Assembly: GCA_964617645.1 (NCBI GenBank) | Contig: CAZTYE010000007.1 | Location: 88,203-152,202 of the forward strand | Reading direction: 5' to 3' | DNA: 64,000 nt | Origin: an uncultured Ignavibacteria bacterium | GTDB taxonomy: Bacteria; Zixibacteria; MSB-5A5; CAIYYT01 | In this document: positions 41,427 through 64,000 of the stretch, in pieces | Numbering within the stretch: the stretch's first letter is position 1 | Layout of the letters: every line of letters starts with the position of its first letter | Notes under the pieces: model-generated | Told to the model about the DNA's origin: nothing | Seen by the model: only the letters and a program-made list of their open reading frames with translations | The model's database searches: none | Position numbers and translations under genes: made by a program

Positions 41427-41765
41427 TTGCTCATTCTAACAAGGAAGTTAGGCGAGTCCATCACGATCGGCGATAACATCAAAGTTACGGTGTTGGGCAT
41501 TTACGGCCGCCAGGTGCGACTCGGCATCGACGCGCCGCTGAAGGTTGTCGTACACCGCGAAGAAGTGTACGTCAAGATTCAGCAGGAGAATCGCAAAGCT
41601 GCGCAGGCGGCCAAGAAGGACCTGATGTCGGTCGTGACGATGCTCCGCAACAAGTTCAAGGGCGAGATCAAGGACTCCGGCGAACAAAAATCGGAGCTTG
41701 AATATCGCGACAACAAAGGCAAGAAGGACCGCAACGACGATCGCAGACCGGAATCAAAACGATAA
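41427..41765 (+). CDS. csrA: carbon storage regulator CsrA with ~50-aa charged C-terminal extension
   Basis: [25 protein letters not shown]…GIDAP core, TTG start with RBS GGAGGG. 112 aa against a typical 60-75. Confidence 0.85.
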
Positions 41766-41918: not shown

Positions 41919-43847
41919 ATGCGCGTAACGCACGAAATGATCGCCAAGCAGGTTGTCTTCAACCTGTCCAACAACATCGAGCGCTTCTTCAAGCTCCAGA
42001 ATATGATGTCGACCAACCGGCGGATCAACAAAGTGTCCGATGATCCGATCGGCACGATCAAAGATCTGTCGTACCGCGAACGCCTGACCGAAATCGGCCA
42101 GTACAAGGCCAATATCGCGATTGGGTCGACGTGGTTGGCGTCGAGCGATCGTGCGCTCAATGACGTCAATACGGCGGTCGCCGACGCGCATTCGATTGCG
42201 GTCGAGATGTCGAACGACACGTTCGACGCCGTTGCGCGAAACGTCGCCGCGAACGAAGTGCAATCGTTGCTCGACCAGATTCTCGCCGCGGGCAATTCGC
42301 AGTTGCAAAACAACTATCTCTTCTCCGGTTATCGCACGCGCACGCAGCCGTTCGAGGCTTCGGGAACCGGTGTGGTCTATCGCGGTGACCAGGGAGTGAT
42401 CCAATACAGCATCGACGCCAAAGCCAAGGTGCAGGTCAACACGATTGGCTCTAACCTTCTGACCAAGCCCTTTCAGGTAATCGGCGCCGATTCGGACTTG
42501 AGCATCGGCATCGTCGGCGCAACGCCGCTGGCGATTCTCAATGCCGGGACAGGTGTCGACGCAGCGCCCGGCACCTTTGTGGTCCGAGACGACAACTTAA
42601 ATATCGCGGCGACAATAGACATCTCCGCCGCGACTACAGTCGCCGATGCCATTTCTGCGATCAACACGCAGCTTGCCGCCGCCGGGATCACGAACTTGAC
42701 GGCGTCGTTGGGACTGGAAGGCAACAACCTGCGCCTGGTGGCAACGGGTCGTCCCGAAATCTCGTTAACTACGCCGCTGGCTAACTTGAATCAGGGTACC
42801 GGCATCGACGCTAATCCCGGAAAGTTCACAATTCGCAACGGTTCGGGAACGATCACCGCGACGGTCGACTTATCGGCTGCGGTAACCATCGGGGATGCGC
42901 TCAACGCAATCAATACTCAATTGGCTGCTGCGGGCGCGACGAACGTGACGGCCGCTTTGAACGGAAGCGGGACAGCGATCGAAATCACCGATACCAACGG
43001 CGTGCCGTTGGGATTGTACATCGAAGAGAATTCCGCCTTTGACACGACGGCGCGAACTCTGGGTCTGGTCGGCTCGATCGGCGCGATCCTGACGGGTTTG
43101 CCGCTCGATCCGCGTCCGGCGTTCACGGTCAGCGAGTCAGCTTCCGGCGAAACCACCGCTGCGAATCTCGGGCTAATCGGATCGTTCACTTACAACCACA
43201 TCGGCGCGGCGCTTGAGCCGCAACTGGAACCGACAACGCTGCTGGCGCAAATCCAGAACAACCTCGGCGCGCCATTGGGCACGCTGCGCATCTCGCAAGG
43301 TGAAGCAAGCGTAGTCATAAACACGAGTAGCCCCGGCATCACGACGGTTCAAGACTTAATCGATGCGATCAACAACGCGGGGCTAAACATCACTGCGGCG
43401 ATCAATCCCGGCGCTACCGGCATTCAGATCACGAACAACGATCCGACCCGGACGCTGATGATTGCGAACAATGACGATCAACGTGTAGCGACGATGCTCG
43501 GCATCGCGGGAGCGGCAGATGTCCTGGGGACAATTATGCTGCTGGTGGACGCCCTGCGAAACGATGATCGCAAAACCGTCGAAAATCTTGTCGGCACGTT
43601 GGACACGGCGCTCAATGCCGTGCTGAACGAACGCGCTTCAGTCGGAGCCAAAGTGATTCGGATGGATACAACGCTGAGCCGACTGGAGGAATACGAAGTC
43701 AATTACACGAAGTTGCTGTCGGAAGTCGAAGACGCCGACATTACGAAACTGATCACCGATCTGGCCATGCAGGAAAACGCCTATTCGGCCGCGCTGAATT
43801 CGGCGGCAAAAATCCTGCAGCCGTCGCTGCTCAATTTTATCCGGTGA
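41919..43847 (+). CDS. flgL: flagellar hook-associated protein 3 FlgL (flagellin-fold, with internal repeats)
   Basis: N-terminus MRVTHEMIAKQVVFNLSNNIERFFKLQNMMSTNRRINKVSDDP, C-terminal flagellin-like helix. 642 aa with three internal ~80-aa repeats. Confidence 0.8.
   Translation: MRVTHEMIAKQVVFNLSNNIERFFKLQNMMSTNRRINKVSDDPIGTIKDLSYRERLTEIGQYKANIAIGSTWLASSDRALNDVNTAVADAHSIAVEMSNDTFDAVARNVAANEVQSLLDQILAAGNSQLQNNYLFSGYRTRTQPFEASGTGVVYRGDQGVIQYSIDAKAKVQVNTIGSNLLTKPFQVIGADSDLSIGIVGATPLAILNAGTGVDAAPGTFVVRDDNLNIAATIDISAATTVADAISAINTQLAAAGITNLTASLGLEGNNLRLVATGRPEISLTTPLANLNQGTGIDANPGKFTIRNGSGTITATVDLSAAVTIGDALNAINTQLAAAGATNVTAALNGSGTAIEITDTNGVPLGLYIEENSAFDTTARTLGLVGSIGAILTGLPLDPRPAFTVSESASGETTAANLGLIGSFTYNHIGAALEPQLEPTTLLAQIQNNLGAPLGTLRISQGEASVVINTSSPGITTVQDLIDAINNAGLNITAAINPGATGIQITNNDPTRTLMIANNDDQRVATMLGIAGAADVLGTIMLLVDALRNDDRKTVENLVGTLDTALNAVLNERASVGAKVIRMDTTLSRLEEYEVNYTKLLSEVEDADITKLITDLAMQENAYSAALNSAAKILQPSLLNFIR
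42531..43030 (+). repeat. two tandem ~250-nt (83-aa) protein-level repeats inside flgL; a third degenerate copy at ~43313-43450
   Basis: ILNAGTGVDAAPGTFVVRDDNLNIAATIDISAATTVADAISAINTQLAAAGITNLTA aligns with NLNQGTGIDANPGKFTIRNGSGTITATVDLSAAVTIGDALNAINTQLAAAGATNVTA. Confidence 0.55.
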
Positions 43848-43853
43848 GGGACA

Positions 43854-44333
43854 ATGGAACTGCAAACGCGTCAATTTGGAATGATTCAGGTCGCCGAAGG
43901 CGAAATCCTCTCCGTCCCACGGGGGCTGCTCGGCTTCGAGGGCTTTGAGCGCTTCGTCTTGATCGACTCGCCCGACTGCCGGCCGTTCCGCTGGTTGCAG
44001 TCGGTCGACGCGCCCGACCTGTCCTTCGTAGTCGTCAATCCGACCGTGTTCTTTCCCGAATACCGGGTGACGGTACATGCCAAGGAAGTTGCCGATATCA
44101 ATGTTGCGCAGCCACAGGACGTAGAAATCTTCGTCATCGTCACCGTGCCGGAACACTGGGAAGAGATGTCGGCCAACCTGCAAGGGCCCATCTTGATAAA
44201 TCGGCGCAACAATAAGGTCAAGCAATTAGTGCTGACCGACTCGAGCTACGGCGTGCAGCATTCGATTGCCCGCCAGTTGGAACGCACTCGCGTCGAGGTC
44301 GCATCGGGAAACGCGATCGTTACAATTTCGTAA
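43854..44333 (+). CDS. fliW: flagellar assembly factor FliW (CsrA antagonist)
   Basis: MELQTRQFGMIQVAEGEILSVPRGLLGFEGFERFVLIDSPD…PFRWLQSVD signature; 159 aa. Confidence 0.85.
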   Translation: MELQTRQFGMIQVAEGEILSVPRGLLGFEGFERFVLIDSPDCRPFRWLQSVDAPDLSFVVVNPTVFFPEYRVTVHAKEVADINVAQPQDVEIFVIVTVPEHWEEMSANLQGPILINRRNNKVKQLVLTDSSYGVQHSIARQLERTRVEVASGNAIVTIS

Positions 44334-44384: not shown

Positions 44385-45959
44385 ATGAGCCCGTCGAACT
44401 CAGCGCGAATCAACTCAGAGACAGTTCCATCAGTCGCCGACCAGATCGCAACGCTACTGGAGACGGCAACCGCGGCGGCTAACCGCGGCGATTTCCAAGC
44501 TGCCGGACTTACATTGCGCAGTGCCTGCGCCCAAATGCCTTTAGTGCACGATCTGTGGTTACAGTGCGCCGATCTACTTCACCGTAGCAGTGACCTCGAA
44601 TCGACCGAGGCATGCCTGCGCGAGGCAATCTCCTTTCATCCGCGAAGCCGGGAGCTCAATCACAGTCTGGGCTTGATTCTCATGCAGGCAGGGCGGAGCG
44701 CAGAAGCTAAAGAGTACTTGGAGAACGCGCTCTCCTTGGCGCCCGAAAACGTTGACGTGCTCAATGACTATGCGGTATTACTCGACCATCTCGGCGAATT
44801 CGATGCTGCTCTTGACCGATACGCAACGGGATTGACGCTGGCCGATGTCAGCCGGAAACTGGTCGCTAACTACATCGATTTAGCGCGGCGATTACGAAGC
44901 CGCGTGGATTTCGACCGCGCTACTGCGGTTTACCGCTCCAAGTGGGGCGCCGACAGCGAATCGTTCGAATGGGAGACCGTTGCCGGCGCCGTGACGCCGA
45001 TTGCGACGACACCACGCCGAGCCAAAATCGCGTTTTTCGCGTCGAGCAAAACTTTCATCGATTCAACGATCCGAGAGTTGCAAAAACATCACGAAGTGCG
45101 GGTCGTGGAACGCCTCGACAATTCGCTCATGCAGTCAACGCTCCAGTGGTGTGATTTGGCTTGGATCGAGTGGTGCGATCAGTTTGTAATTGCCGCATCC
45201 AAGCTGCCGAAGACCTGCAAAATCATCTGTCGCCTGCACAGCTATGAAGTGTTCACCGACTTACCGCGACAGGTGGATTGGAGCAAAATCGATCACCTCG
45301 TCTTGGTGAACGAGTCAGTCAAAGAGCTGCTCGCCTATAACACTCAAATATCTACGCCGACCAGCGTGATTTATAATGGCGTAGATATCGACAAGTTCAC
45401 GATACCGGCGAATAAGGTTCGCAGTAAGAGCATCTGCTCAATCGGCTACATTAACTACAAGAAGAATCCGGCGCTGCTGCTTTACTGCTTTAAGGCCATT
45501 CATGAGTGGGATCCGGAATTCACGTTTCATATCGCCGGTGAGCATCAAGACGCGCGCATTCAGGTCTATTGGGCACATCTCCTGCCAAAGTTGGGAATTC
45601 CGCTGCAATTTGACGGCTGGACCCACGACGTCCCCGAATATCTGCGCGACAAGGACTATGTGATCTCGACGTCGCTGTTCGAGTCATTTCACTATTCGAT
45701 TGCCGAGGGCATGGCATCCGGAGCGCTGCCGCTGATCCATGACTGGTTCGGCGCCGACAAGCTTTATCCGCGTGAATTTTTGTTCACGACGCCCGCTGAT
45801 TGCCTTCGATTGCTGAGGGAACTCGAGACTCAGGATCGTTGCCGCCTGCAACAAAGTTGTCGCCGTCATATCGTCTCGAGATTCGATCAGAAGAAGCAAC
45901 AGAGGCTTACGGAAAACCTAATTGATCAAGTTCTCTGGGGCAAGAGTGGGGAAGCATGA
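44385..45959 (+). CDS. TPR-repeat + GT-B (family 4/GT1-like) glycosyltransferase
   Basis: N-terminal TPR repeats. C-terminal glycos_transf_1-like EGMASGALPLIHDWFGA motif. Confidence 0.7.
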   Translation: MSPSNSARINSETVPSVADQIATLLETATAAANRGDFQAAGLTLRSACAQMPLVHDLWLQCADLLHRSSDLESTEACLREAISFHPRSRELNHSLGLILMQAGRSAEAKEYLENALSLAPENVDVLNDYAVLLDHLGEFDAALDRYATGLTLADVSRKLVANYIDLARRLRSRVDFDRATAVYRSKWGADSESFEWETVAGAVTPIATTPRRAKIAFFASSKTFIDSTIRELQKHHEVRVVERLDNSLMQSTLQWCDLAWIEWCDQFVIAASKLPKTCKIICRLHSYEVFTDLPRQVDWSKIDHLVLVNESVKELLAYNTQISTPTSVIYNGVDIDKFTIPANKVRSKSICSIGYINYKKNPALLLYCFKAIHEWDPEFTFHIAGEHQDARIQVYWAHLLPKLGIPLQFDGWTHDVPEYLRDKDYVISTSLFESFHYSIAEGMASGALPLIHDWFGADKLYPREFLFTTPADCLRLLRELETQDRCRLQQSCRRHIVSRFDQKKQQRLTENLIDQVLWGKSGEA

Positions 45960-48571
45960 GCAAGCGAACTAAGGGCCGCACGGCGAAGAAGAATAGAGCG
46001 ACCGAAGCAGTCACCGACCCCGCAGAATTGACCGAGTTGTACAGAGCGGGAAACTATCGCAAGTGCTGGGATTGTGGTCGCGGTCAGCAGCTTCCTGACT
46101 CCGCCGGCGATGCCATTCTCGCAGTTGTCTGGAGCGGCTTCAGGCTCGGCTGCCTGGAACCGGCCGCCGGATTGCTCAGTCGATCGAGGGAACAGGTGCC
46201 GAGCTTTCGCCGCGCAGTTGCGTCTGCCGTCCTCGCGCATGGCGCAGGTGAATTCACCGAGTGCGTGGAGATCGCGCACGCAGTGCTTACGAATGATCAG
46301 GATCTAATCTCCGGCCTGACAGCCTCCGGACACCAATTCGAAGAAACCCGTGAATTCGTCACCGCAGTCGCGAACTCACTTCTACAGTTGCGGAAGCCGC
46401 AGGCGGCGGAAGAACTATTGCGCCGGGCCATATCGATCCGTGACAATGTCGCTGAATTCTACATTGAGCTTTACCAAATCGCGCGCCGTGAGGCCGATCA
46501 AGAGAAGCAACGGCGGATCTTAACTGATGGCATGGTGCGGGCCGCTCATAAGGACGACTTGGCAAAATTCGCCGCAAACTTGCTTGGTGAGCAACGCATC
46601 TCGGTGTGCATGATCGTCAAGAATGAGGAGAAGCTGCTCCCGCGAGCGCTGGCCAGCATTCACGAATTGGCCTACGAGATTATCGTGGTCGACACCGGCT
46701 CGACGGATCTGACGGTTGAGATCGCCGAGAGTTTCGGAGCCAAGGTCTTTCATCATGAATGGCAGAACGATTTTTCGCTCCACCGCAACCAGTCGTTAGC
46801 TTATGCAACCGGCGAGTGGGTGATGATTCTCGACGCGGACGAAGAACTTGTCGGCCAAGACGTCGGTAGACTACGGCAGGCGCTCTTAATCCCGAATCTC
46901 AACATTCTCTCGATCTCCGTGCACAACCAGCACCTGCGTACCGGTGAGACTACATCGTTTTTGCCGTCAGTCCGTTTGTGGCGCCGCAAGTTGAATCTCC
47001 ACTACGAAGGCATCGTCCACAACGAGCTGCGATTGCCGCCGACAGAACCGATCCTGCGCGTTGATGTCCGGCTAAACCACTTCGGTTACGGCCTTGACTG
47101 GGAGCAAATGAAGACGAAGATCGCGCGCAGTCGGGCGCTGCTGGAACAGCAGCTTGCGGACAACCCGAACCATGCATTCGCCAACTTCAATTTGGCACAA
47201 CTGCTGCGTGGCGAGTCGCAGAATCCATCTGCGGACACCTGCCGCAGGATAATCGAGCATGCCGGTCGGACCGTGAAATTCACCGATCCAGACAATCGGG
47301 ATCAGCGTCACCTGCACTTGATGGCGCTGGATCAGATGACGACCGCTTACTTCTATCTGAAAGATTATGAAAATGCCGAATCGTGCGCAAAACGCGCACT
47401 CGCGATCGACCCCGGTTATCTTGATCCGCTGTTCGCATTGGGGCATATCTATGCCGCACAACGCAACTTTGACGAGGCCATTCCCGCTTACCGGAATTTC
47501 ATTACCGCCGCCAACGCCTACGATCCCGGAAAAGAAACGACGAATTTTATACTACAGCACAGTCAGGATCAAGCATCCGCACACTTTGCGCTCGGGCTGA
47601 TTTACGAAGAGAAGCAAGATTGGGCCGCCGCCGAGTCGCATTTCCTGCAAGCATCCAAACTTCGCGAGCACCATCAGGACGTCGACACGCACCTGGCGTA
47701 CATCGCCTACCGGCGGGGCGAGTATGATACGGCGCAGAAGTATGCCGAACGACAGCTTAGGTCAACCGAGACTGATGTCCCGGCTCGATGGCTGTTGGCG
47801 AAGATTGCGCGCGCACGCGGCCTTTCGGCTGACGCACTTCGGCAATGTGAGATTATTCTGCAACATCATGCCGACCACAATCAAGCGCAGCAACTCAAGA
47901 TCGAGCTTCTCCGCGAACTGGGAAAGGAATCCGCCGCTGCGGCTGCGATTGATCAGGCGCTAAGAGCTGATCCGGAGAATCCGACGGTGCTCAATCAGCA
48001 AGCGGAAATGCTCATCGCGAGCGGCCGGCACGAGCAGGCGTTGGCAGTGTACAGCCGCCTTGTAAAGCACAACGCTCAAGACGCCGAGACGCACAACAAT
48101 ATCGGCAATTGCTACTACCGCCTCTGCGATTACGCCGCGGCGGCTCGCGCTTATGAACTCGCGCTTTCGATTCGGCCGCAGCTTGTGCCGGCGCTGAGAA
48201 ACCTCGGCCTGACGTATTGTAAGCTCGATGATCCGGCGGCGGCGATTGCGCATCTCAGTCGCTACCTCGACTACGCCAAGGGTGATCTTGAGATCGAGTA
48301 CCTGGTCGCGCGCTTGCTCTTCGATCTCAATCGCTACAGCGAGGCGATTCACTTTGTTGAGCGCGGCCTGCAGAAGCATCCGCGTTCAGCGGAGTTGGTC
48401 GCGTTTCTTGCCGACTGTTACAACCGTTTGGGACACTTCGATAGCGCGCGGCTCGGATACCGGCAGGCGCTGCAGCTCGATCCGAGCATGACGCAAGTGC
48501 GCGACATTCTCTCGCAACTCGAAACACAGTTGGCGCAGACGTCGAAAATCCCGGTGGTAAAGGAGCGCTAA
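45956..48571 (+). CDS. TPR-GT2-TPR glycosyltransferase (candidate flagellin O-glycosyltransferase, FgtA-like architecture)
   Basis: Central GT-A/GT2 domain (CMIVKNEEKLLPRALASIHELAYEIIVVDTGSTD…ILDADEEL) flanked by many TPR repeats. ATGA start/stop overlap with the upstream gene. Confidence 0.75.
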   Translation: MSKRTKGRTAKKNRATEAVTDPAELTELYRAGNYRKCWDCGRGQQLPDSAGDAILAVVWSGFRLGCLEPAAGLLSRSREQVPSFRRAVASAVLAHGAGEFTECVEIAHAVLTNDQDLISGLTASGHQFEETREFVTAVANSLLQLRKPQAAEELLRRAISIRDNVAEFYIELYQIARREADQEKQRRILTDGMVRAAHKDDLAKFAANLLGEQRISVCMIVKNEEKLLPRALASIHELAYEIIVVDTGSTDLTVEIAESFGAKVFHHEWQNDFSLHRNQSLAYATGEWVMILDADEELVGQDVGRLRQALLIPNLNILSISVHNQHLRTGETTSFLPSVRLWRRKLNLHYEGIVHNELRLPPTEPILRVDVRLNHFGYGLDWEQMKTKIARSRALLEQQLADNPNHAFANFNLAQLLRGESQNPSADTCRRIIEHAGRTVKFTDPDNRDQRHLHLMALDQMTTAYFYLKDYENAESCAKRALAIDPGYLDPLFALGHIYAAQRNFDEAIPAYRNFITAANAYDPGKETTNFILQHSQDQASAHFALGLIYEEKQDWAAAESHFLQASKLREHHQDVDTHLAYIAYRRGEYDTAQKYAERQLRSTETDVPARWLLAKIARARGLSADALRQCEIILQHHADHNQAQQLKIELLRELGKESAAAAAIDQALRADPENPTVLNQQAEMLIASGRHEQALAVYSRLVKHNAQDAETHNNIGNCYYRLCDYAAAARAYELALSIRPQLVPALRNLGLTYCKLDDPAAAIAHLSRYLDYAKGDLEIEYLVARLLFDLNRYSEAIHFVERGLQKHPRSAELVAFLADCYNRLGHFDSARLGYRQALQLDPSMTQVRDILSQLETQLAQTSKIPVVKER

Positions 48572-49659
48572 TGATGCGAGTTGAATTGTGCGCGTTCGAT
48601 GCGACCAAGGCGAATGATCTACTGATGCGAATCCCGCACCATGTGCAGAACACGGCGGCATGGTTCGATTTCGTCCACGAGTTCAGTGGCGAAGAAGAAG
48701 TCTCGATCGGCTTTGCAATTGGCGGAGAATTCCGAGGCTTTGTGCGCGCGCTACGATTCAAGAATCTCATTCAGTCATTGCCGTATCCGGCAAGCTATTC
48801 GGGACCGGTGTTTGATCCGGAGGTCGGAGAAGGAGAGCGAATCGCTTGCCTCAATCTGCTCATCGAACACCTCGCCACACGCTGCGACGTTTTTTCAATC
48901 ACCGGTTCGCCGCTCATGCGCCAGGATTTCACCGGTATAACAGAATCGGTGCATGTGTTGCGTAACCGCATCGACGTAATCGACCTCAGCGCGCCGCCGC
49001 TCGCCGGCACAACATCCAAATTTCGCAACAATCTCAAGCGGAACTTGCGCAAAGCGGAAGCCGCCGGTGTCCGCGGCAAGCTACAGCACGATACCGAGCT
49101 GCTCGGCCGCTGGTATCAGGTTTACGAACGGCGTATGCGGCAGTTGAACGCGCCGACCCTGCCGCTGCGCTATTTCGAATTGATGTTCCGTCACCTGCAG
49201 CCGCACGGCCAAGTTGCCCTGCTCAGCTCGCTCAGCGGAAAAGAATATTTTGGGGGGACGATTGTCGTCTACAATCGACATTGCGCCGACTATTACCTCA
49301 GCGTCTATGACCGCGAATACGACGATCTACAGGCATCAACTGCCGGCCTCCACTTCTTAATTCACTGGCTGAAATCGCAGAGCGTCACGCTGTTCAACCT
49401 GCAGGCGTCGCCATCAACTCAAGGCGAGTTGGCGCACTTCAAACAATCGTGGGGCGCGCAGAGTCGTGAGCATGTCTACACTTCAGCAGTCCTAAATTCC
49501 GCGACAAACTTGTTGCAGACAATGCCGAAAGAAATTCGACAAAGTTATCCGTTTCACTTTGTCGTGCCATTCTCTGCTCTGGTGAACTGCCCGTCAGCGG
49601 GGCCGGTGGAGTTCGCAACGGACGATTCGCAGTGCGGCAAGGAGGTTGCAACGCCATGA
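48571..49659 (+). CDS. FemAB-like / GNAT-fold acyltransferase family protein
   Basis: 362 aa. Architecture and motifs resemble the FemAB-type (Acetyltransf_6-like) family often found in glycan loci. Weak assignment. Confidence 0.45.
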   Translation: MMRVELCAFDATKANDLLMRIPHHVQNTAAWFDFVHEFSGEEEVSIGFAIGGEFRGFVRALRFKNLIQSLPYPASYSGPVFDPEVGEGERIACLNLLIEHLATRCDVFSITGSPLMRQDFTGITESVHVLRNRIDVIDLSAPPLAGTTSKFRNNLKRNLRKAEAAGVRGKLQHDTELLGRWYQVYERRMRQLNAPTLPLRYFELMFRHLQPHGQVALLSSLSGKEYFGGTIVVYNRHCADYYLSVYDREYDDLQASTAGLHFLIHWLKSQSVTLFNLQASPSTQGELAHFKQSWGAQSREHVYTSAVLNSATNLLQTMPKEIRQSYPFHFVVPFSALVNCPSAGPVEFATDDSQCGKEVATP

Positions 49660-50678
49660 TTTCAGGAAAGACGATTTTCATTACCGGCGGCGCCGGGTTC
49701 ATTGGCTCGGCGCTGGCAGAACGGCTGGTCGAGGATAATCGCATAATCATTTATGATAATTTCCGGCGCAATTCGCTTGTCGACAAGTCTTGGCTGTCGT
49801 CGCACCGCAACATCGAACTGGTCGCTGGCGACATTCGCGATCGCGGCGCGCTCACGCATGCCATCGCCGGCGCAAACATCGTGATTCACGCGGCGGCGAT
49901 TGCCGGTGTCGACTCGGTGCTTCGCGACCCGGTGGGGACAATGGAAGTCAATGTCATCGGCACCTACAATGTGTTCATGACGTGCCTCGAATCCTGCGGG
50001 CGGCTGGAGCGTGTAATCGACTTTTCAACCAGCGAAGTATTTGGCGCTTACGCCTACAAAGTCACCGAAGAGAACCTCAAGCCGGCGCTCACCGTTGGTG
50101 AGGCACGCTGGTCTTATGCCGTCAGCAAACTGACCGGCGAGTTCTTCGCCAACAGTTTTTTCAGCAAACACGGGCTGCCGATTGTCTGCGTGCGGCCGTT
50201 CAATATTTATGGACCGGGCCAAGTCGGCGAAGGCGCCATTCACCATTTCGTCGTGAATGCCATTCAAAATCGCGACCTGACAATTCATGCCGACGGCAGC
50301 CAAATTCGCGCCTGGTGTTACATCGACGATATCCTCGACGCGCTGGTGGAAATTCTCTCCAACGATCGCGCCATCGGTCACGCATTCAACATCGGCAATC
50401 CGAAAAGCACGGTCACGATTTATCATCTCGCCCGCGAAGTCATCCGCGTGGCACAGTCGCGATCGGGATTGGTGTTCAAGGAGATGACCTCGCCGGACGT
50501 CGAAGTGCGCATTCCGGACATCCACAAGGCCCGCGAAATACTGGGATTTGAGCCGTTAGTCGAGTTAGAGGATGGTCTCAAGCGGACAATCGACTGGTAT
50601 CGACAGAAGCTCAACGGCGGTCTTGAACCGCGTCGCCGCGCACTGAAAATCAAAGAGGGAATTGGCCATGCCGTCTAA
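49656..50678 (+). CDS. NAD-dependent sugar epimerase/dehydratase (extended SDR)
   Basis: Rossmann motif FITGGAGFIGSALAERL and catalytic YxxxK (YAVSK). Confidence 0.85.
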   Translation: MISGKTIFITGGAGFIGSALAERLVEDNRIIIYDNFRRNSLVDKSWLSSHRNIELVAGDIRDRGALTHAIAGANIVIHAAAIAGVDSVLRDPVGTMEVNVIGTYNVFMTCLESCGRLERVIDFSTSEVFGAYAYKVTEENLKPALTVGEARWSYAVSKLTGEFFANSFFSKHGLPIVCVRPFNIYGPGQVGEGAIHHFVVNAIQNRDLTIHADGSQIRAWCYIDDILDALVEILSNDRAIGHAFNIGNPKSTVTIYHLAREVIRVAQSRSGLVFKEMTSPDVEVRIPDIHKAREILGFEPLVELEDGLKRTIDWYRQKLNGGLEPRRRALKIKEGIGHAV

Positions 50679-51705
50679 AATCACACTTGCCGCAAAACCG
50701 TGGGAACGCTTCTATGGATTTGCCAACGACAACGACAAGATTTTCCCCAACATGGTGCATCTGGATCTGATTAATATCTGCAACTTTCGATGTATCCACT
50801 GTCCTCAGCACGATATCAAGAAGTTTGTGCCCGACTACCAGCAAAACCAACTGGATTGGGATGTCTTCACCCGCGTCATCGACGAAGTCGCCGAACATGG
50901 CGCGACACTGCGCATTACCTGCGACGGTGAGCCATTCCTCTACAAGCACATCGTTAAAGCGATTCACTACATCAAGGATCGTGGCGTCAAAATCGCTACG
51001 ATCGTGACTAACGGTAGCGCGCTGAGCAAGCCAATTGCCGAGGCGATCCTGCGGCCTTCCGCGACGAAACTCGTCATCGACTTCAGCCTCGACAGCCTGT
51101 ACAAGTCGACTTACGAGAAAATCCGCCTGCAGGGGAACTTCGTTGAAGTGTACAGCAATGTGCTGTTCCTGCTGAAAAATCGATCGCTGAATCCTAATCT
51201 GCGCATCATCGTAAACATGATTGATCAAGACACTTTGGAAGCAGGCGAGCTGGAATCATTTGAGAAATTCTGGCGCCCGATCGCGGACGACGTGGTTGTG
51301 CGCACGTATCTCACGGTCAAGGGTATGGTCAACTCTTCGACTCTGCGGATGGATGATGACCAATATCGCTGGCCCTGCTCCTTGCTTTGGAATCGCATTT
51401 CGGTGTCGTCGCACGGTCGGCCGCGATTTTGCGTCGCCGATTGGCGTGAACAGTCGGCTTTTCGCGACTTCGACTTGCTCAAGATGTCAATCAAGGAAAT
51501 CTGGCAATCGGATCGCTACGATAAGTTGCGAAAGATCCATCTTGACAGGGAATTCTCGAAAATCAGGATTTGCGAACACTGCACCGATTGGTTCGGTCTG
51601 AAGTGGGATTATGACTACCGCACGTTGATTGACAAGCTCTTCGCCCCGAAGGAGCGCATCTCTGAAGCGTCCCGGATCTCAGTGGAGGCTCCGGTCAATG
51701 TCTGA
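50668..51705 (+). CDS. radical SAM enzyme with C-terminal auxiliary Cys cluster (SPASM/twitch-like)
   Basis: CNFRCIHCPQ (CxxxCxxC). C-terminal Cys-rich block CSLLWNRISVSSHGRPRFCVADW…ICEHCTDW. Confidence 0.75.
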   Translation: MPSKITLAAKPWERFYGFANDNDKIFPNMVHLDLINICNFRCIHCPQHDIKKFVPDYQQNQLDWDVFTRVIDEVAEHGATLRITCDGEPFLYKHIVKAIHYIKDRGVKIATIVTNGSALSKPIAEAILRPSATKLVIDFSLDSLYKSTYEKIRLQGNFVEVYSNVLFLLKNRSLNPNLRIIVNMIDQDTLEAGELESFEKFWRPIADDVVVRTYLTVKGMVNSSTLRMDDDQYRWPCSLLWNRISVSSHGRPRFCVADWREQSAFRDFDLLKMSIKEIWQSDRYDKLRKIHLDREFSKIRICEHCTDWFGLKWDYDYRTLIDKLFAPKERISEASRISVEAPVNV

Positions 51706-54118
51706 GGCTGTGACGATCCATGCCTTCGGTGAGCAAAACGCGGTTGCGGCATGGCTGAATCCATACTGCGACCTGCAATCCTCTACAGCCAAAGTTGTTG
51801 TCCGCCACGAAGGAGAATTCCAACTCGCCCGCTCGCAACAATTGCTCTCGAACGATAGCTGCCTGTGGATCGATCAACTCGACGCCGCGGTGGTAAGATT
51901 GACGCAAGTCGGAGTGCAGCATCGGGCGAGAACGATTCTGCGGGTTGAGTCATCGGATTTACTCGATAATGACCTATCGCAAATGCGCTGGGAGTTCTTC
52001 GACGCCGTCGTGCCGTCGGACAAGCTGGCGGAGGCCCTGCTCTTTGATGTCTGCGATCGTATCGAATCGTTCACGCGCGTTGTGCAACTGCCGATGGCAC
52101 TTGCCCTACCACATCTGGCCGTGGCCGACAAACGGCCGACCAAGACAATTGCCTACCGCGGGGCCTTGCGCCGTGACAATCGTTCGGAAATGCTGCTGCA
52201 ATTGCTCGCGGCGCTCGCGCGAGTCGATGCTCAATTCCGCTTGGTAATCGTTGGTGAATTCGAAAGCCGGAGTTGGCAAGCACATTTCGAGACGATGATT
52301 CAGGCGATGGGCTTGGCCGAACAGATCCGTTTCGAAGTGGCGCCACCGGACTGGATCGCATGGTATCGCGATAAGGATGCCATTATGCAACTGACGACAG
52401 ATTCAGTAAGCAGGCAGACGACACTTCTCGCTATGGCTTGCGGAGTCCGCCCAGTCGTTTACCGGCACTTTGGCGCCGAAAATCACTACATGCCCGACAT
52501 GATATTCTCGTCACTCGATGACGCCGCGCAGTTGATTCGGCACAGCCCGTGGGAACCGTTACGCTGGCGCAATCAGATCAGCGAACAACAAGATCCCGAG
52601 CAGAACTACGCCCGCTTCCGATCAATCGTGGAATTCGCGTCGAGCGAGGCGAGTCCCATGGTAAGCATACTGCTCCCTACTTTCAACCGGGCCAAAATGC
52701 TGGAGGGTACGTTGGCGCGGCTCGGCCGGCAGACATATCGCAACATTGAGATCGTGGCGGTTGATGACTGCTCCGAAGACGAAACACCGGAGGTACTGGC
52801 ACGGGCCGCCCGAGCCGATTCCCGTGTAGTCACGAGCAGAAACCCAGTGAATGAAGGCAATGCGCGAGCGATGGCGACTGCCGCGCGGATGGCTGCCGGC
52901 GAGTTCGTACTGGTATTCTCCGACGATGACGATTTGGCCGAAGACGCCGTCGAGAAGCTGGTCGAGTGCGTTCGCCGCAAACAACCGGATCTGATTTACT
53001 CCAATCTCGAAATCATCGACCAGAATGGCAATTCGCAAGGAGTGTGGCAATATCGCAATTATTACGACACGCGCGACCTTCTTCAGCGACTTGTCGCCAA
53101 CGACGGCAACTTGATCCCGGAAGTGTTTTTCTGCCGGCGCGAACTGTACGCGGAACTATATGAGGAAACGTACTCCCGGCGATTTCTCAACACCTATTAC
53201 CTGCCGCATCTTCGCCGACTGCGGATGCTTCATCTGCCGCTGCCGCTATATCGCTACCGCGTCCACGGCGGGAGCACGTTCAGTTCAGCCCGAGGATTGC
53301 TTGATCGCAGCAAGTCAACACAAAATTACATCAATGCGGCGTTGTTCATGTACTCGCCGCTGAACATTTTCGGCGGCAACTCGCAGAGCACGGTTGTCGA
53401 GCAATACGCTGCGGCATGCTATCAAGCGGCCGAACTGCTCATCGCGTTGGGAGACCGGCATCGTGAAGGCCGGAATTATGCCGGAGCCGAATTCACCGCG
53501 ACAGATCGATTATGGTGGGTGTACTACTTTAATGCCTTTCATTGGCTCATGCAGGCGAAGTTGCACAGCGACGATCATCGGATTCACGATGGGCTTCAGG
53601 CAAAGATCCTTGCCGAGTGCGACCCGGGTGCATTCAATCCCGAGCGGGATACGGCCTTGCCGAGTTTCTATCGAGAACTGCCGTGGTTCGCGAACAAGGG
53701 GTTCAATAATCTCGGTGATTTTGTCGCGCTCGACATGCTGACCATGGGCGCCAAGCCACCTCTGGATCAAAGCAGCTATACACTTTGGCGTGGTGGCAAG
53801 GCACATCTGCGCGCCGAGAACCGCATCGCCACTGACATCGACCAAGCAATCACCGAGTTGGAATCAAGGCCGATTACGGCAGTAAACGTCTGCGACGCAA
53901 AATATCTTGCGCCACTACTCAGTTACTTGATTGAGAACGGTCGACTGGCTGTGAACGTAATGAATCTTGCCGGGATTACGATTCCACAGCTTGAGACATA
54001 TCGCAACCTCTTCACTCCGGAAATTCCGATAGTATCGTTCGCCGACTATCTTCGCTGGATCACCAATGTAACGACGAGATGTAACTATGCGCGTTCCGTT
54101 GTCGAAGCCGCTGTTTGA
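51698..54118 (+). CDS. multi-domain glycosyltransferase (GT-B-like N-terminal region + GT2 domain + ~350-aa unknown C-terminal domain)
   Basis: GT2 motif SILLPTFNRAKMLEGTLARLGRQTYRNIEIVAVDDCSED…FSDDDD. N-terminal region resembles a glycos_transf_1 C-terminus. 807 aa. Confidence 0.65.
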   Translation: MSEAVTIHAFGEQNAVAAWLNPYCDLQSSTAKVVVRHEGEFQLARSQQLLSNDSCLWIDQLDAAVVRLTQVGVQHRARTILRVESSDLLDNDLSQMRWEFFDAVVPSDKLAEALLFDVCDRIESFTRVVQLPMALALPHLAVADKRPTKTIAYRGALRRDNRSEMLLQLLAALARVDAQFRLVIVGEFESRSWQAHFETMIQAMGLAEQIRFEVAPPDWIAWYRDKDAIMQLTTDSVSRQTTLLAMACGVRPVVYRHFGAENHYMPDMIFSSLDDAAQLIRHSPWEPLRWRNQISEQQDPEQNYARFRSIVEFASSEASPMVSILLPTFNRAKMLEGTLARLGRQTYRNIEIVAVDDCSEDETPEVLARAARADSRVVTSRNPVNEGNARAMATAARMAAGEFVLVFSDDDDLAEDAVEKLVECVRRKQPDLIYSNLEIIDQNGNSQGVWQYRNYYDTRDLLQRLVANDGNLIPEVFFCRRELYAELYEETYSRRFLNTYYLPHLRRLRMLHLPLPLYRYRVHGGSTFSSARGLLDRSKSTQNYINAALFMYSPLNIFGGNSQSTVVEQYAAACYQAAELLIALGDRHREGRNYAGAEFTATDRLWWVYYFNAFHWLMQAKLHSDDHRIHDGLQAKILAECDPGAFNPERDTALPSFYRELPWFANKGFNNLGDFVALDMLTMGAKPPLDQSSYTLWRGGKAHLRAENRIATDIDQAITELESRPITAVNVCDAKYLAPLLSYLIENGRLAVNVMNLAGITIPQLETYRNLFTPEIPIVSFADYLRWITNVTTRCNYARSVVEAAV

Positions 54119-55280
54119 CGGCGCTGAGCAGCGAGCAGTTTGCGAAGTTCTCGACTCGGGCTGGGTTATGCAGGGAAGTCGAGTTGCTGAACTGGAGCGC
54201 CGCTTTGCTGCATTTGTGGGGACACCGTGGGCAATCGCGACATCCTCATGCACAACGGCGCTGCATCTTGCAATGCGCGCTATCGGCGTCAGCCCGGGCG
54301 ATGAAGTGATCGTTCCCTCGTTGACCTGGGTAGCGACGGCCGCTGCCGTCGAGGAGTGCGGTGCGGAGACCGTCTTTGCCGATAGCCGGTTGGACACCTA
54401 CAACATGGACATCGAACACGCGCGTTCGCTCATCACCAGTCGTACGCGCGCCATTGTTGCCGTTAGCCTTTTCGGGCTTGCGGCAGATCTACCAGTCTTA
54501 ACTAAGTTGTGCGATGAGCATGGAATTATCTTGATCGAGGACGCAGCTTGTTCTTTGGGCGCGACTTGTGGCGGTCGACAAAGCGGCGGCTTTGGTCGCG
54601 TGGCTTGTTTCTCTCTGCATCCACGAAAGTCAATCACTACCGGTGAGGGAGGCGTTATCGTTGGCGCTGACGCGCGCGACGAAAGATATCTTCGACGAGC
54701 GCGCTCTCACGGCATCATTCTTCCCAGCGAAGGCGAATCGCTACCGCCCCATGAGATGGGAGATGTCGAACTCTGCGGCTACAATTATCGCTTGACGGAT
54801 CTACAGGCTTCACTCGGATTGGCGCAATTCGACAAACTAAGCGACATCCTTCGCCGCCGCCGCGAAATCGCCAGCATCTATACACGTGCCTTCTCAGATT
54901 TGGAGGGAATCAACACGCCGTTCGAGCCGGCAAGCTGCCGTCACAGTTATCAATCGTATGTCTTGCTTGTGACGGCGCCAACCGGCGACGATGCTGAATC
55001 CGAGCGCTTGCGTAACGCGATGATGATCCAACTCGAACGACGCGGAGTTTCAACTCGCCCCGGAACGCATGCTGTACATAGTCTGTCCTACTTTCGCGAC
55101 AAGTACAAACTGCATCGCAGGTCGCTCCCGAATGCTTATCGGGCCATGACGCGGACAATCGCGCTGCCGCTCTATCCTTCGATGACGCAAAGTGAAACAT
55201 GTTACGTCATAGAATCGGTGAGAGCGGTGTACGAGGAGATATTTACCTCGGTGAATAGCGGAACGTGTGGCGGCGATTGA
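54087..55280 (+). CDS. DegT/DnrJ/EryC1/StrS family PLP-dependent sugar aminotransferase
   Basis: N-terminus LSKPLFDGAEQRAVCEVLDSGW. PLP-Lys region SFHPRKSITTGEGG. Confidence 0.85.
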   Translation: MRVPLSKPLFDGAEQRAVCEVLDSGWVMQGSRVAELERRFAAFVGTPWAIATSSCTTALHLAMRAIGVSPGDEVIVPSLTWVATAAAVEECGAETVFADSRLDTYNMDIEHARSLITSRTRAIVAVSLFGLAADLPVLTKLCDEHGIILIEDAACSLGATCGGRQSGGFGRVACFSLHPRKSITTGEGGVIVGADARDERYLRRARSHGIILPSEGESLPPHEMGDVELCGYNYRLTDLQASLGLAQFDKLSDILRRRREIASIYTRAFSDLEGINTPFEPASCRHSYQSYVLLVTAPTGDDAESERLRNAMMIQLERRGVSTRPGTHAVHSLSYFRDKYKLHRRSLPNAYRAMTRTIALPLYPSMTQSETCYVIESVRAVYEEIFTSVNSGTCGGD

Positions 55281-55699: not shown

Positions 55700-57892
55700 A
55701 TGTCACTGCGCATTAACCACAACATAGCTGCACTGGATGCTCAGCGTAACTTGGCCATGACCACGCGCTCGATCAGCGGCGTCATGGAGAAGCTGTCGTC
55801 CGGCTACCGCATTAACCGCGCCGCCGATGATCCGGCCGGCCTGGTTATTTCCGAACAGTTCCGGGCTCAGATCGCCGGTCTCAATCGCGCGATCCAGAAT
55901 TCGGAAGGTTCGATCAACATGATCCAGACCGCGGAAGGTTCACTCAACGAAATCAACTCGCTGTTGGTCTCGATGCGCGAACTGGCCATCCACGCGGCCA
56001 ACGAAGGCTTCAACGACGCCAATCAGTTGGCTGCCGACCAGGCCGAAATCGAAAACGCGATCAAGACGATCGATCGTATTGCCGCGAACACGCAGTTCGG
56101 CACGAAGAAGCTGCTGGACGGCACCAAGGACAATATCGCGACAATCACGACCGCCAATTCGTCCGGTCTCACCGTGCTCAAGAGCTTCCTGTCTTCGGGA
56201 AGCCACTCGATCACCGCGACCAAGACCGCCGATTCGACTGCGACGATCAACACCACGTCGCTGGGCATTTCGCTCAATTCGACCGGCTCGCCGAGCAATC
56301 TCGAAGAGAAGATTCACAATCTCAACGTATTGCAGGCTTCAGCCGGCGCCGAGAAGACCTCGAGCGCAATGGCGATTAGCGACGCCTTCGGCAACGGCAT
56401 GACCATTGCCGCCACCGCTCAGTACGCCACCGTGTTCAGCGCCGCTTCGGTGCTGTCCGCCGCAACGGCGTCTCATGCCGGCACGTACACCGTCGTCCTG
56501 AACTATCAGGAAAACAACGAAGCCGTCTCCGGCGATCAGACCTTGCAGGTCGCGATTGCCGCGACGGACACTCGTGCCGCCATCATCAACAAGTGGAATC
56601 AGGCGATTGCCAACAATTCGTCGTTGGCCGGCAAGATCACTGTTGCCACGACGACTTCTGGCACCGGCCAGGGCATTCAATTCCGCGCCGTCAACAAGGG
56701 CGCTCAGTATTCGTTGAAGCTGACGTCGGCGACGACAACGGCGTCTTCGAATTACATGAGCATGGGCGCCAGCCGCTCCAGCCGTGGCGTGAGTTTGAAC
56801 GTGTTGAACTTTACGGTTACCACCGCGAAGAACAACAACACGACCGCAGCCGTGACCGTAGCGGCGTCGACCTATAGCTCGATGTCCACATTGGCGACCG
56901 CCATCCAGACCGGCTTAGCTTCCGCGTTTGGCACGGTTTCCACAGGCGCCGGCCAGACTTCGACGACCAACGACGTCGATGTTTCGGTTTCCGGCACCAG
57001 CCAGTTGAAGTTCTTCACCTATGATGAAGGCTCCGACTACAAGATCAAGCACAATTCCACGGGCACCGAATCCGAGCGTCTGTTCAACGCCCTCGGCCTG
57101 AGCGCCGACACGTTGTCGATCTCGGGTGCTGACGCGCTCGTGTCGTTTGACGGCTACACTTCGGCCGTGACGTCGGTCAAGTACGGCTCGACTTCAAATG
57201 TCACGCTGTACAACAAGGCCGCCGGCAGCGCCGGCCGTGGTTCGATTGCGTTGACGGTCGGAAAGGCGTCCAACGGTCTCAACGTTGGCAACCTGCTGCT
57301 TGACGTAAAGGCCGCCAAGTTTGACGTTCGTCTCGATGCCGGACCGGCTACCTCCGTGACGGCGGGAAAGGATGCGACCGTTTATAATTCGGATCGCACC
57401 CAGTCCTTGAACATTCGTTACGCACTGACCTCCAACGGTGGTTCGGAATCGATTACGAACACGGATCAGTCGCTGGTGTTCCAGATCGGCGGCAACGTCG
57501 GTCAGACCGCGGCGATCGGCCTGCGCAACATGACAACTTCCGCGTTGGGCAAGAACCTCGCTGGAAACTCATTTAGCAGTCTGGCCTCGATCAACGTCGA
57601 AACCGTCCTTGGCGCTCAGGACGCCCAGGCCGTGATTGACGCTGCGATCGACGAAGTCTCCAACGCTCGCGGTACGCTGGGTTCGTTCCAGAAGAACACT
57701 CTGGAATCCAATCTGCGCAACTTGCGAGTCGCTGCACAGAACCTCACGGCTTCCGAGTCCGGCATTCGTGACACCGATATGGCGTCCGCGATGTCCGATT
57801 TCGTGAAGAACCAGATCCTGCTTCAGGCTGGTACCGCCATGCTTGCGCAAGGCAACCAGTTGCCGCAGGTCGTGCTGTCTCTGTTCAGCTAA
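55700..57892 (+). CDS. fliC: flagellin (730 aa; conserved D0/D1 termini with very large Ser/Thr/Ala-rich central variable region)
   Basis: N-terminus MSLRINHNIAALDAQRNLAMTTRSISGVMEKLSSGYRINRAADDPAG. C-terminus …DFVKNQILLQAGTAMLAQGNQLPQVVLSLFS. Confidence 0.9.
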   Translation: MSLRINHNIAALDAQRNLAMTTRSISGVMEKLSSGYRINRAADDPAGLVISEQFRAQIAGLNRAIQNSEGSINMIQTAEGSLNEINSLLVSMRELAIHAANEGFNDANQLAADQAEIENAIKTIDRIAANTQFGTKKLLDGTKDNIATITTANSSGLTVLKSFLSSGSHSITATKTADSTATINTTSLGISLNSTGSPSNLEEKIHNLNVLQASAGAEKTSSAMAISDAFGNGMTIAATAQYATVFSAASVLSAATASHAGTYTVVLNYQENNEAVSGDQTLQVAIAATDTRAAIINKWNQAIANNSSLAGKITVATTTSGTGQGIQFRAVNKGAQYSLKLTSATTTASSNYMSMGASRSSRGVSLNVLNFTVTTAKNNNTTAAVTVAASTYSSMSTLATAIQTGLASAFGTVSTGAGQTSTTNDVDVSVSGTSQLKFFTYDEGSDYKIKHNSTGTESERLFNALGLSADTLSISGADALVSFDGYTSAVTSVKYGSTSNVTLYNKAAGSAGRGSIALTVGKASNGLNVGNLLLDVKAAKFDVRLDAGPATSVTAGKDATVYNSDRTQSLNIRYALTSNGGSESITNTDQSLVFQIGGNVGQTAAIGLRNMTTSALGKNLAGNSFSSLASINVETVLGAQDAQAVIDAAIDEVSNARGTLGSFQKNTLESNLRNLRVAAQNLTASESGIRDTDMASAMSDFVKNQILLQAGTAMLAQGNQLPQVVLSLFS

Positions 57893-63073: not shown

Positions 63074-64000
63074 ATGAGCGCTATTGATACGACTACACGA
63101 ACTATGAATGTTCCATTCTACCGTCTGACACTGTCGCAAGACGAGATTGATGCCGTGACATCCGTACTGCGTTCGGGTTGGTTGACGACGGGCAAGGTGA
63201 CTCACCAATTTGAGGCAGAATTTGCAGAGCATGTCGGCGCCAAGTACGCTGTCGCCGTGAATTCGTGCACGGCCGCCTTACATCTTTCACTCATCGCCGC
63301 CGGAGTTGATCCGGGAGATGAGGTCATCACGACACCCTATACCTTCGTGGCGACCACAGAAACGATTATCCAGACTGGCGCCAAAGTCGTCTTCGCGGAC
63401 ACGCGGAAGGATTCACTGAATATCGATTTGGACAGTGTCGAGCGCGCCGTTTCCAAGCGGACGAAAGCCATCGTCCCGGTGTACATCGCCGGCGAGCCAA
63501 TCGACCTCGGCGCGATCGAACGCTTGCGCCGTAAGTACGGCGTCAAGGTCATTCACGACGCGGCGCACGCTCTTGGCACTTACTGGCGGGGAACTCCGGT
63601 CGGCGCGACGAACGACTTCACTTGCTTTTCATTCTACTCGACGAAGAATCTGACAACCGGCGAAGGCGGGATGATCACGCTCAACAACAAACGTCTGGCC
63701 GATAGGCTGCGCGTCATCGGACTGCACGGCATGTCGAAAGGCGCGTGGAAACGGTATTCAGGCGCAGGATCATGGAAGTATGAGATTCTCGACCTGGGCT
63801 ATAAGTACAACTTAACTGATATTGCGAGCGCGCTGGGGCTGATGCAGCTTCGCAATTTCAGCAAAATCCAGGAGTGCAGAGCTCGCGCCGCCGAATGGTA
63901 TCGCCGGCATCTGGGTGATATCGATGAGCTGGTCTTGCCGGAAACCCCCGATGGTGGCGTGCACGCCTGGCACCTGTACATTATTAAGCTGCGCCGCGGT
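63074..64000 (+). CDS. DegT/DnrJ/EryC1/StrS family sugar aminotransferase (partial, continues past window end)
   Basis: Hand translation from ATG 63074 gives MSAIDTTTRTMNVPFYRLTLSQDEIDAVTSVLRSGWLTTGKVTHQFEAEF…NSCTAALHLSL…FSFYSTKNLTTGEGG (PLP-Lys context), open to position 64000. Confidence 0.8.
   Translation, partial: MSAIDTTTRTMNVPFYRLTLSQDEIDAVTSVLRSGWLTTGKVTHQFEAEFAEHVGAKYAVAVNSCTAALHLSLIAAGVDPGDEVITTPYTFVATTETIIQTGAKVVFADTRKDSLNIDLDSVERAVSKRTKAIVPVYIAGEPIDLGAIERLRRKYGVKVIHDAAHALGTYWRGTPVGATNDFTCFSFYSTKNLTTGEGGMITLNNKRLADRLRVIGLHGMSKGAWKRYSGAGSWKYEILDLGYKYNLTDIASALGLMQLRNFSKIQECRARAAEWYRRHLGDIDELVLPETPDGGVHAWHLYIIKLRRG

Follow-up and report, generated by a model that had tools for sequence, protein, structure and literature searches.

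Few radical S-adenosylmethionine (SAM) enzymes with an action on sugars are known, among them BtrN, DesII, AprD4, BlsE, HygY/NeoN and viperin, and almost all of these come from antibiotic pathways. In the pairs BtrS/BtrN and DesI/DesII, a DegT-family aminotransferase makes an amine that is the substrate of a radical-SAM enzyme. The gene described here (50668-51705, plus strand; 345 amino acids) encodes a radical-SAM protein and lies in a window of 64,000 nucleotides, the whole stretch of DNA analyzed, from an uncultured Ignavibacteria bacterium (contig CAZTYE010000007.1, positions 88,203 to 152,202). The part of this window that runs from fliW to the flagellin gene is a flagellin glycosylation island. 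Inside it lies a conserved amino-sugar cassette in which the radical-SAM gene comes fourth, alongside genes for a short-chain dehydrogenase/reductase (SDR), a DegT aminotransferase and a FemAB/FemX-like transferase. The evidence establishes the radical-SAM enzyme as a component dedicated to pathways of nucleotide 4-amino sugars. Taken as a whole, the explanation that we consider probable is that the enzyme tailors an intermediate of a nucleotide 4-amino-sugar pathway that feeds the flagellin glycan, with BtrN-type dehydrogenation as the likeliest reaction.

The predicted radical-SAM protein scored above the Pfam cutoffs for both Radical_SAM (PF04055; 47.3 bits against a cutoff of 29.5, E 3.5e-12) and SPASM (34.8 bits against 21.5, E 2e-8, residues 237-306). 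Its eight cysteines are found at positions 38, 42, 45, 85, 237, 255, 302 and 305. The first three form a canonical CxxxCxxC motif (CNFRCIHC, 50779-50802, plus strand), the predicted ligands of the SAM-binding [4Fe-4S] cluster, as had been recognized in the first-pass annotation, a short note made from the DNA letters. These three residues, together with C237, C255 and C302, were invariant in 43 homologs reaching down to 22% identity, and C305 was nearly so. The CxxxCxxC motif, the Pfam score and a partial TIM-barrel fold place the protein in the radical-SAM superfamily.

A SPASM domain proper carries the seven-Cys motif CX9-15GX4C ... CX2CX5CX3C ... C and binds two auxiliary clusters. The radical-SAM protein instead showed the spacing C237-x12-G250-x4-C255 ... 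C302-x2-C305, so that only the CX12GX4C and CX2C elements are present; a CX2CX5CX3C block was not found in the protein, and no Cys follows C305. The four conserved residues are therefore predicted to be ligands for one auxiliary cluster, as in the twitch subclass with its abridged SPASM domain, and not for two. Consistent with this assignment, the twitch pattern was present in 174 of the 187 relatives that have CxxxCxxC, and the full SPASM motif (CX2CX5CX3C) in none. The candidate twitch domain (51376-51585, plus strand), which would bind a single auxiliary [4Fe-4S] cluster, was also recovered by alignment with the C-terminal domain of BtrN. The first-pass annotation had proposed a second cluster of SPASM/twitch type, which the Pfam match and the conserved C-terminal cysteines bear out. 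It had counted at least five further cysteines in that region, a miscount, as the strings that it quoted hold only the four named above; and of the one or two auxiliary clusters that it allowed, one stands and the second is not confirmed. The remaining cysteine, C85, is part of the radical-SAM core (ITCDGEP); more distant homologs have S, A, P or G at this position, and no non-cluster Cys that might serve as a hydrogen donor was conserved in the homolog alignment. Y149 was invariant and Y101 nearly so. Collectively, these sequence data establish the predicted product as a two-cluster twitch radical-SAM enzyme, with a SAM-cleaving [4Fe-4S] cluster and a fully Cys-ligated auxiliary [4Fe-4S] cluster.

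The radical-SAM gene is closely linked to its neighbors. A Shine-Dalgarno sequence (AGAGGGA) precedes its ATG with an 8-nt spacer. An 11-nt overlap joins the start of the gene to the stop of the SDR gene upstream, and the ATG of the downstream glycosyltransferase gene (51698) overlaps its own stop by 8 nt; a scan for promoters and terminators inside the glycosylation island revealed no signal above background. Thus, the gene belongs to a tightly packed operon and is translationally coupled within the island, downstream of fliW and upstream of the flagellin gene. This arrangement, with nucleotide-sugar and glycosyltransferase genes on either side inside a flagellar locus, agrees with the earlier description of the gene as embedded in a sugar operon.

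The fold of the radical-SAM protein was modeled with AlphaFold2 (AF2) from 43 sequences (pLDDT 85.4, pTM 0.86). When the model was compared with solved structures by Foldseek, BtrN was the top match (E 7.7e-11, TM score 0.71 on the target). SuiB, MoaA, DesII, SkfB, anSME and EpeE came next, and BlsE was also among the structural matches. A phmmer search of the PDB with the sequence matched only BtrN (E 3e-4, via the twitch domain) and MoaA. The SPASM/twitch radical-SAM fold class of the protein is secure. Identities to solved relatives (BtrN, DesII, BlsE, anSME, SuiB and others) were 13-19%, and, judged by sequence, no single characterized enzyme is closely related.

BtrN, the 2-deoxy-scyllo-inosamine dehydrogenase of butirosin biosynthesis (PDB 4m7t/4m7s), resembles the protein most closely by both sequence and Foldseek. 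It shares the radical-SAM core followed by a four-Cys twitch domain with one auxiliary [4Fe-4S] cluster, the spacing logic CXnGX4C ... CX2C, and the pairing with a DegT-family aminotransferase for work on an amino-carbohydrate. However, identity to BtrN was 14-17%, and BtrN has 250 residues against 345 for the window protein, which has a fuller barrel. The window holds no 2-deoxystreptamine genes, and the substrate here is presumably nucleotide-linked. With a phmmer E value of 3e-4 and flagellar and nucleotide-sugar neighbors, the protein falls outside the DOIA dehydrogenase family of BtrN.

Other described enzymes were more distant. DesII, the TDP-4-amino-4,6-dideoxy-D-glucose deaminase of desosamine biosynthesis (PDB 8hzy), is longer (about 480 residues) and 15-18% identical; its equivalog profile was absent among the best 25 of the 43 NCBIfam matches, and the similarity was structural only. 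The peptide-modifying SPASM or twitch enzymes anSME, SuiB, SkfB and EpeE are not known from sugar operons, and anSME and SuiB have at least seven Cys, two auxiliary clusters and peptide substrates. In contrast, the window protein has one auxiliary-cluster motif, and no anSME profile appeared among the same 25 matches. The auxiliary cluster of MoaA (GTP 3',8-cyclase) is held by three Cys and has an open Fe site, whereas four Cys ligands are predicted here, and the MoaA profile scored 51.4 bits against a cutoff of 284.

No NCBIfam model reached its cutoff for the radical-SAM protein, and the same was true for more distant relatives. The best match was TIGR04321 spiro-SPASM (68.9 bits against 250, E 3e-19, profile positions 228-506 only), followed by NF033640 N_Twi_rSAM (66 bits against 170, E 3e-18); both families are themselves uncharacterized, and the protein is a member of neither. 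In spiro-SPASM proteins the radical-SAM part is preceded by about 225 residues. The window protein has no N-terminal domain; approximately 18 of its top 150 relatives do have such an N-terminal extension. The first-pass annotation had held that confident placement in a well-characterized non-sugar family, such as anaerobic sulfatase maturase, with a matching substrate gene nearby, would speak against a role on sugars. No non-sugar family claimed the protein, all NCBIfam matches being far under their cutoffs, and neither a sulfatase nor a peptide substrate gene was found nearby, with sulfatases sought among the surveyed open reading frames at 35-63 kb.

The three partner enzymes of the cassette were examined by profile and PDB searches. 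The SDR (49656-50678, plus strand; Pfam Epimerase/GDP_Man_Dehyd) matched PDB entry 8vr2 most strongly (E 1e-107), then human UXS1, a UDP-glucuronate decarboxylase (E 2e-40), and RmlB-type enzymes at about 1e-30. It carries the motif FSTSEVFG, in which we take T-S-E to be the signature of UXS/ArnA decarboxylases, as opposed to the T-D-E of 4,6-dehydratases. From these features the SDR is probably a nucleoside diphosphate (NDP)-hexuronate C4-oxidase/decarboxylase of UXS/ArnA type, with a 4,6-dehydratase as the alternative still to be reckoned with. The depositors of 8vr2 named it only 'NAD-dependent epimerase/dehydratase', and the TSE motif suggests that the 8vr2-type SDR family, annotated in just these terms, comprises hexuronate decarboxylases. 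This family is very large: more than 7,900 clusters match 8vr2 at E<=1e-80. In marine gammaproteobacteria its members come after WbpA/B/D/E-type genes; in Idiomarina and Pseudoalteromonas, close relatives of 8vr2 are encoded directly after such genes and before genes for a DegT aminotransferase and a hexapeptide acetyltransferase, a layout as expected for making 2,3,4-triacetamido-pentose. The putative function of 8vr2 itself is taken from this gene context and from work on Psychrobacter cryohalolentis. The pentose is documented in the O-antigen of P. cryohalolentis (PMC8040287). Literature searches on 8VR2, 8VR3 and triacetamido-arabinose decarboxylase found no paper.

The best PDB matches of the DegT/DnrJ/EryC1 protein (54087-55280, plus strand; Pfam E 1.3e-106), a candidate sugar 4-aminotransferase of ArnB/PseC type, were ArnB enzymes (E 6.8e-63), and its NCBIfam matches to PseC, LegC and ArnB were all under their cutoffs. 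The FemAB-like protein (48571-49659, plus strand; Pfam Acetyltransf_6, PF13480, E 1.3e-13) had no PDB match when searched alone. A profile built from 12 orthologs, in turn, matched FemX (E 2.3e-9) and lipid II:glycine glycyltransferase (4e-6), as well as an aminoacyl-tRNA-dependent peptide synthase and FemA. All of these enzymes use aminoacyl-tRNA as the donor of an amino acid that they attach to a primary amine, in the case of FemX on a UDP-linked substrate. By this profile similarity, the FemAB/FemX-like protein is probably an aminoacyl-tRNA-dependent N-aminoacyl transferase. The cassette resembles both the Arn pathway (UDP-Ara4N) and the Idiomarina/Pseudoalteromonas SDR/DegT/hexapeptide set in its UXS/ArnA-like SDR and ArnB-like DegT. 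In contrast to these, it has a FemX-like protein and a radical-SAM enzyme in place of a simple N-acetyl- or N-formyltransferase, and flagellin, instead of lipid A or O-antigen, would receive its product.

A word-indexed search of 5.8 billion proteins returned 45 relatives of the radical-SAM protein, 25 of them full-length with at least 35% identity. When 1.84 billion cluster representatives (50% identity) were searched exhaustively with a profile, 2,120 matched at E<=1e-30, so the subfamily is large. Genome matches at 77-83% identity were in metagenome-assembled genomes labeled Ignavibacteria or Zixibacteria that contain the same island, and the whole island was syntenic in relatives of 58-83% identity. 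Matches at 32-38% identity came from Gemmatimonadota, Melioribacter, Nitrospira, Omnitrophota, Acidobacteriota, Xanthobacteraceae, Thermodesulfobacteriota and Pelagibacteraceae, and relatives are present in the cultivable Melioribacter roseus and Magnetospirillum fulvum, that of M. fulvum in the clade linked to WbqC. Homologs with 30-41% identity were found beside the same sugar enzymes in polysaccharide loci that are not flagellar.

The genomic context of the family was surveyed at 27 nonredundant loci from Gemmatimonadota, Nitrospira, Omnitrophota, Melioribacter, Acidobacteriota, Alphaproteobacteria and SAR11, with neighbors within 7 kb clustered. DegT genes were present at 21 of these loci and SDR genes at 20, and either a WbqC gene or a FemAB-like gene recurred, the FemAB-like gene in most cases as the immediate neighbor of the radical-SAM gene. 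The type of SDR differed, being TSE-type in the clade nearest the window and of other types elsewhere; the constant elements are therefore the 4-aminotransferase, the FemAB-like or WbqC protein, and the radical-SAM enzyme. A neighbor-joining tree of the radical-SAM proteins separated FemAB-associated from WbqC-associated clades. The idea that WbqC is a divergent FemAB-like protein was not supported (hhalign probability 0.2%, no PDB match). FliW homologs were found near the cassette at one Gemmatimonadales and one Nitrospiraceae locus. At the SAR11 loci, the radical-SAM gene is placed between a PseB/LegB-like (SDR) and a PseC/LegC-like (DegT) gene, next to NeuB and a cytidylyltransferase. The homologs in these nonulosonic-acid clusters of Pelagibacteraceae (L034-L039) were 32-33% identical; the clusters also encode a protein of 330-354 residues of no assigned family, and WbqC was present at four of the six. 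B12-binding radical-SAM genes, probably for methyltransferases, shared polysaccharide loci with the twitch gene at L002, L022 and L027, so that there are surface-glycan clusters with several radical enzymes.

Fusion proteins were surveyed among the top 150 representatives of the family. The radical-SAM domain was joined to WbqC, to an ArnB-like DegT domain and to an ArnA-like formyltransferase domain. The DegT fusion (P0080, 737 residues; JGI 3300078620) is encoded between two large MptE-like genes (Maf-type flagellin glycosyltransferase domain) and next to WbqC, with no SDR visible on its 14-kb contig. The formyltransferase fusion is one of two paralogous twitch radical-SAM genes at a single locus (L089:2865-11141), which also holds genes for a GNAT protein, an asparagine-synthase-like protein, WbqC, an SDR, an RmlA-like nucleotidyltransferase (NTP-transferase) and a DegT protein. 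The N-terminal extension mentioned above, shared by about 18 of the 150 best representatives (P0061, P0063, P0068, P0075, P0079, P0081 and others; alignment A3), is a domain of 200 residues with the motifs DQxFxDP and YFTQWEHCRLPxGxGxR. It had no Pfam match, and nucleotidyltransferase profiles matched only below threshold. Its AF2 model (pLDDT 88.9) matched cytidylyltransferases, led by a Leptospira enzyme (6oew, E 2.4e-6), with CMP-Kdn and CMP-NeuAc synthetases and IspD next in rank, and on this model the domain has a cytidylyltransferase-like fold. Since the profiles match only below threshold, the domain may be binding rather than catalytic.

Together, these findings suggest a pathway of five steps. 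The UXS/ArnA-like SDR would oxidize C4 of an NDP-hexuronate (or hexose) to give an NDP-4-keto sugar, the ArnB-like DegT enzyme would convert this to an NDP-4-amino-4-deoxy sugar, and the FemX-like enzyme would N-aminoacylate the 4-amine. The radical-SAM enzyme would then tailor the amino sugar or its N-aminoacyl form, and glycosyltransferases with tetratricopeptide repeats (TPRs) would transfer the product to flagellin. The substrate is very likely a nucleotide-linked 4-amino sugar derivative. We infer from genomic context only that its target is the nucleotide sugar, and not the N-acyl group of the sugar or something else. This link to sugars is strengthened by the conservation of the SDR, DegT and FemAB-like/WbqC partners across phyla and by the fusions to sugar enzymes.

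Dehydrogenation of the BtrN/SpeY/anSME type is the single likeliest chemistry for the radical-SAM step, although we hold it tentatively. It is favored because BtrN is the best match by sequence and by Foldseek, because four Cys are predicted to ligate the auxiliary cluster, as in enzymes that use such a cluster as electron acceptor, because there is no conserved Cys hydrogen donor, and because the DegT-radical-SAM fusion mirrors the BtrS/BtrN pairing. In such a reaction, the 5'-deoxyadenosyl radical would take hydrogen from a C-H whose neighboring carbon bears a hydroxyl or amino group, and the resulting substrate radical would pass an electron to the auxiliary cluster, for a net two-electron oxidation as in BtrN, SpeY and anSME. 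Several points weigh against the explanation as a whole. Full-text literature searches (radical SAM with flagellin glycosylation, or with O-antigen and SPASM; WbqC; BtrN with polysaccharide) found nothing relevant. The top NCBIfam profiles of the SDR are dTDP-glucose 4,6-dehydratase and LegB, both below cutoff. Further, the island has one DegT gene, and a second, from 63104, runs off the window, which bears on any amination of a ring ketone after the radical step; given this second gene, there is room for schemes with two aminations. The closest genomic partner, the FemX-like or WbqC gene, fits action on an N-acyl group equally well.

Such action would mean that the radical-SAM enzyme alters the N-aminoacyl substituent, an L-amino acid loaded by the FemX-like enzyme, and not the sugar ring, whether by C-alpha epimerization to the D-form (EpeE/YydG), side-chain oxidation (anSME) or oxidative decarboxylation (MftC). 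We regard this main rival as unlikely but deserving of serious attention, as the adjacency to FemAB-like/WbqC genes, the co-phylogeny and the apparent replacement of a simple acetyltransferase all speak for it. The DegT, formyltransferase and cytidylyltransferase-like fusions, however, point to the sugar or nucleotide part, and the SAR11 gene sits between SDR and DegT genes. The variability of C85, which leaves no conserved non-cluster Cys as hydrogen donor, also counts against it. The same lack of a Cys donor argues against a radical sugar epimerase of the HygY, NeoN or AviX12 type, which would invert one ring stereocenter with no net redox change, although the invariant Y149 or the nearly invariant Y101 could donate the hydrogen. 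The close mechanistic relationship of twitch-type carbohydrate epimerases to BtrN lends this reaction some support, but ordinary SDR or cupin epimerases usually do such work, and we judge it improbable. A related scheme, in which FemX-like aminoacylation of a nucleotide-linked 4-amino-4-deoxy sugar is followed by remodeling of the added residue or the adjacent ring carbon by the twitch radical-SAM partner, is possible but on the doubtful side.

A DesII-like lyase would remove the 4-amino group, or a vicinal hydroxyl, to give a 3-keto-4-deoxy sugar for a second transamination and then N-acylation. Extra DegT genes occur in related loci, but these are mostly explained by a WbpB-like GFO oxidoreductase, and with the DesII profile missing from the best 25 of the 43 NCBIfam matches, this route appears quite improbable. 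We consider it very improbable that the protein is not a sugar enzyme at all and modifies flagellin or an unrecognized small peptide in the manner of anSME or of maturases of RiPPs, peptides that are made on the ribosome and modified after translation. The homologs in non-flagellar polysaccharide loci and the fusions to DegT, WbqC and formyltransferase domains argue against this, and no peptide-maturase family reached its NCBIfam cutoff. In addition, the protein begins about 30 residues before the cluster motif, with no N-terminal RiPP recognition element (RRE) or other peptide-binding domain.

The kind of enzyme to which the tailoring step is assigned is known, whereas the subfamily, its partners and its role in flagellin or surface glycans are undescribed in the searched literature and lie outside curated models. 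The family is consistently wired into surface-glycan pathways, comprising flagellin glycans, O-antigen-like loci and SAR11 nonulosonic-acid loci. Its reaction, once identified, would stand as a new step in the tailoring of amino sugars by bacteria, and the function would extend to thousands of proteins annotated as 'radical SAM/SPASM domain protein'. Aminoacylation of nucleotide sugars by a tRNA-dependent enzyme might be demonstrated in the same way. If the two-step FemX-like and radical-SAM route holds, the route would be previously undescribed and its radical chemistry new for nucleotide sugars; it would occur widely in uncultured phyla and in the surface glycans of SAR11, and would serve here to decorate flagellin.

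The remaining genes of the island are all on the plus strand. FliW (43854-44333) marks its upstream border and is followed by a TPR protein with a GT1 domain, a candidate flagellin glycosyltransferase (44385-45959), and by a second TPR glycosyltransferase with a SunS-like GT2 domain (45956-48571). The FemAB-like, SDR and radical-SAM genes come next, then a two-domain glycosyltransferase with GT1-like and GT2 parts (51698-54118), the DegT gene, and flagellin (55700-57892; 730 residues, Pfam Flagellin_N/C), the presumed glycan acceptor; fliD and a FliT/FlgN-like gene lie beyond. No homolog of NeuB, a CMP-sugar synthetase, WbqC or a GFO oxidoreductase was found in the window, nor was a UDP-sugar 6-dehydrogenase that would supply hexuronate. 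A pseudaminic or legionaminic acid pathway, considered as an alternative for the window, was therefore rejected.

Upstream of fliW, the gene order is flgG, flgA, flgH, flgI, flgJ, flgN, flgK, csrA and an FlgL-like gene. The csrA gene (41427-41765, plus strand) thus follows flgK and precedes the FlgL-like gene, fliW being the second gene downstream of it, and its 112-residue product has an unusually long charged C-terminal tail. The FlgL-like protein (41919-43847, 642 residues) is also unusually long and carries a Flagellin_IN motif, and the flagellin, again unusually long, has a central region rich in Ser, Thr and Ala. After fliC, fliD, the FliT/FlgN-like gene and an HDOD gene comes the second DegT/DnrJ/EryC1-type aminotransferase gene, which has its ATG at 63104 on the plus strand and continues past the end of the window (64000); a second sugar gene set may lie beyond the filament genes.

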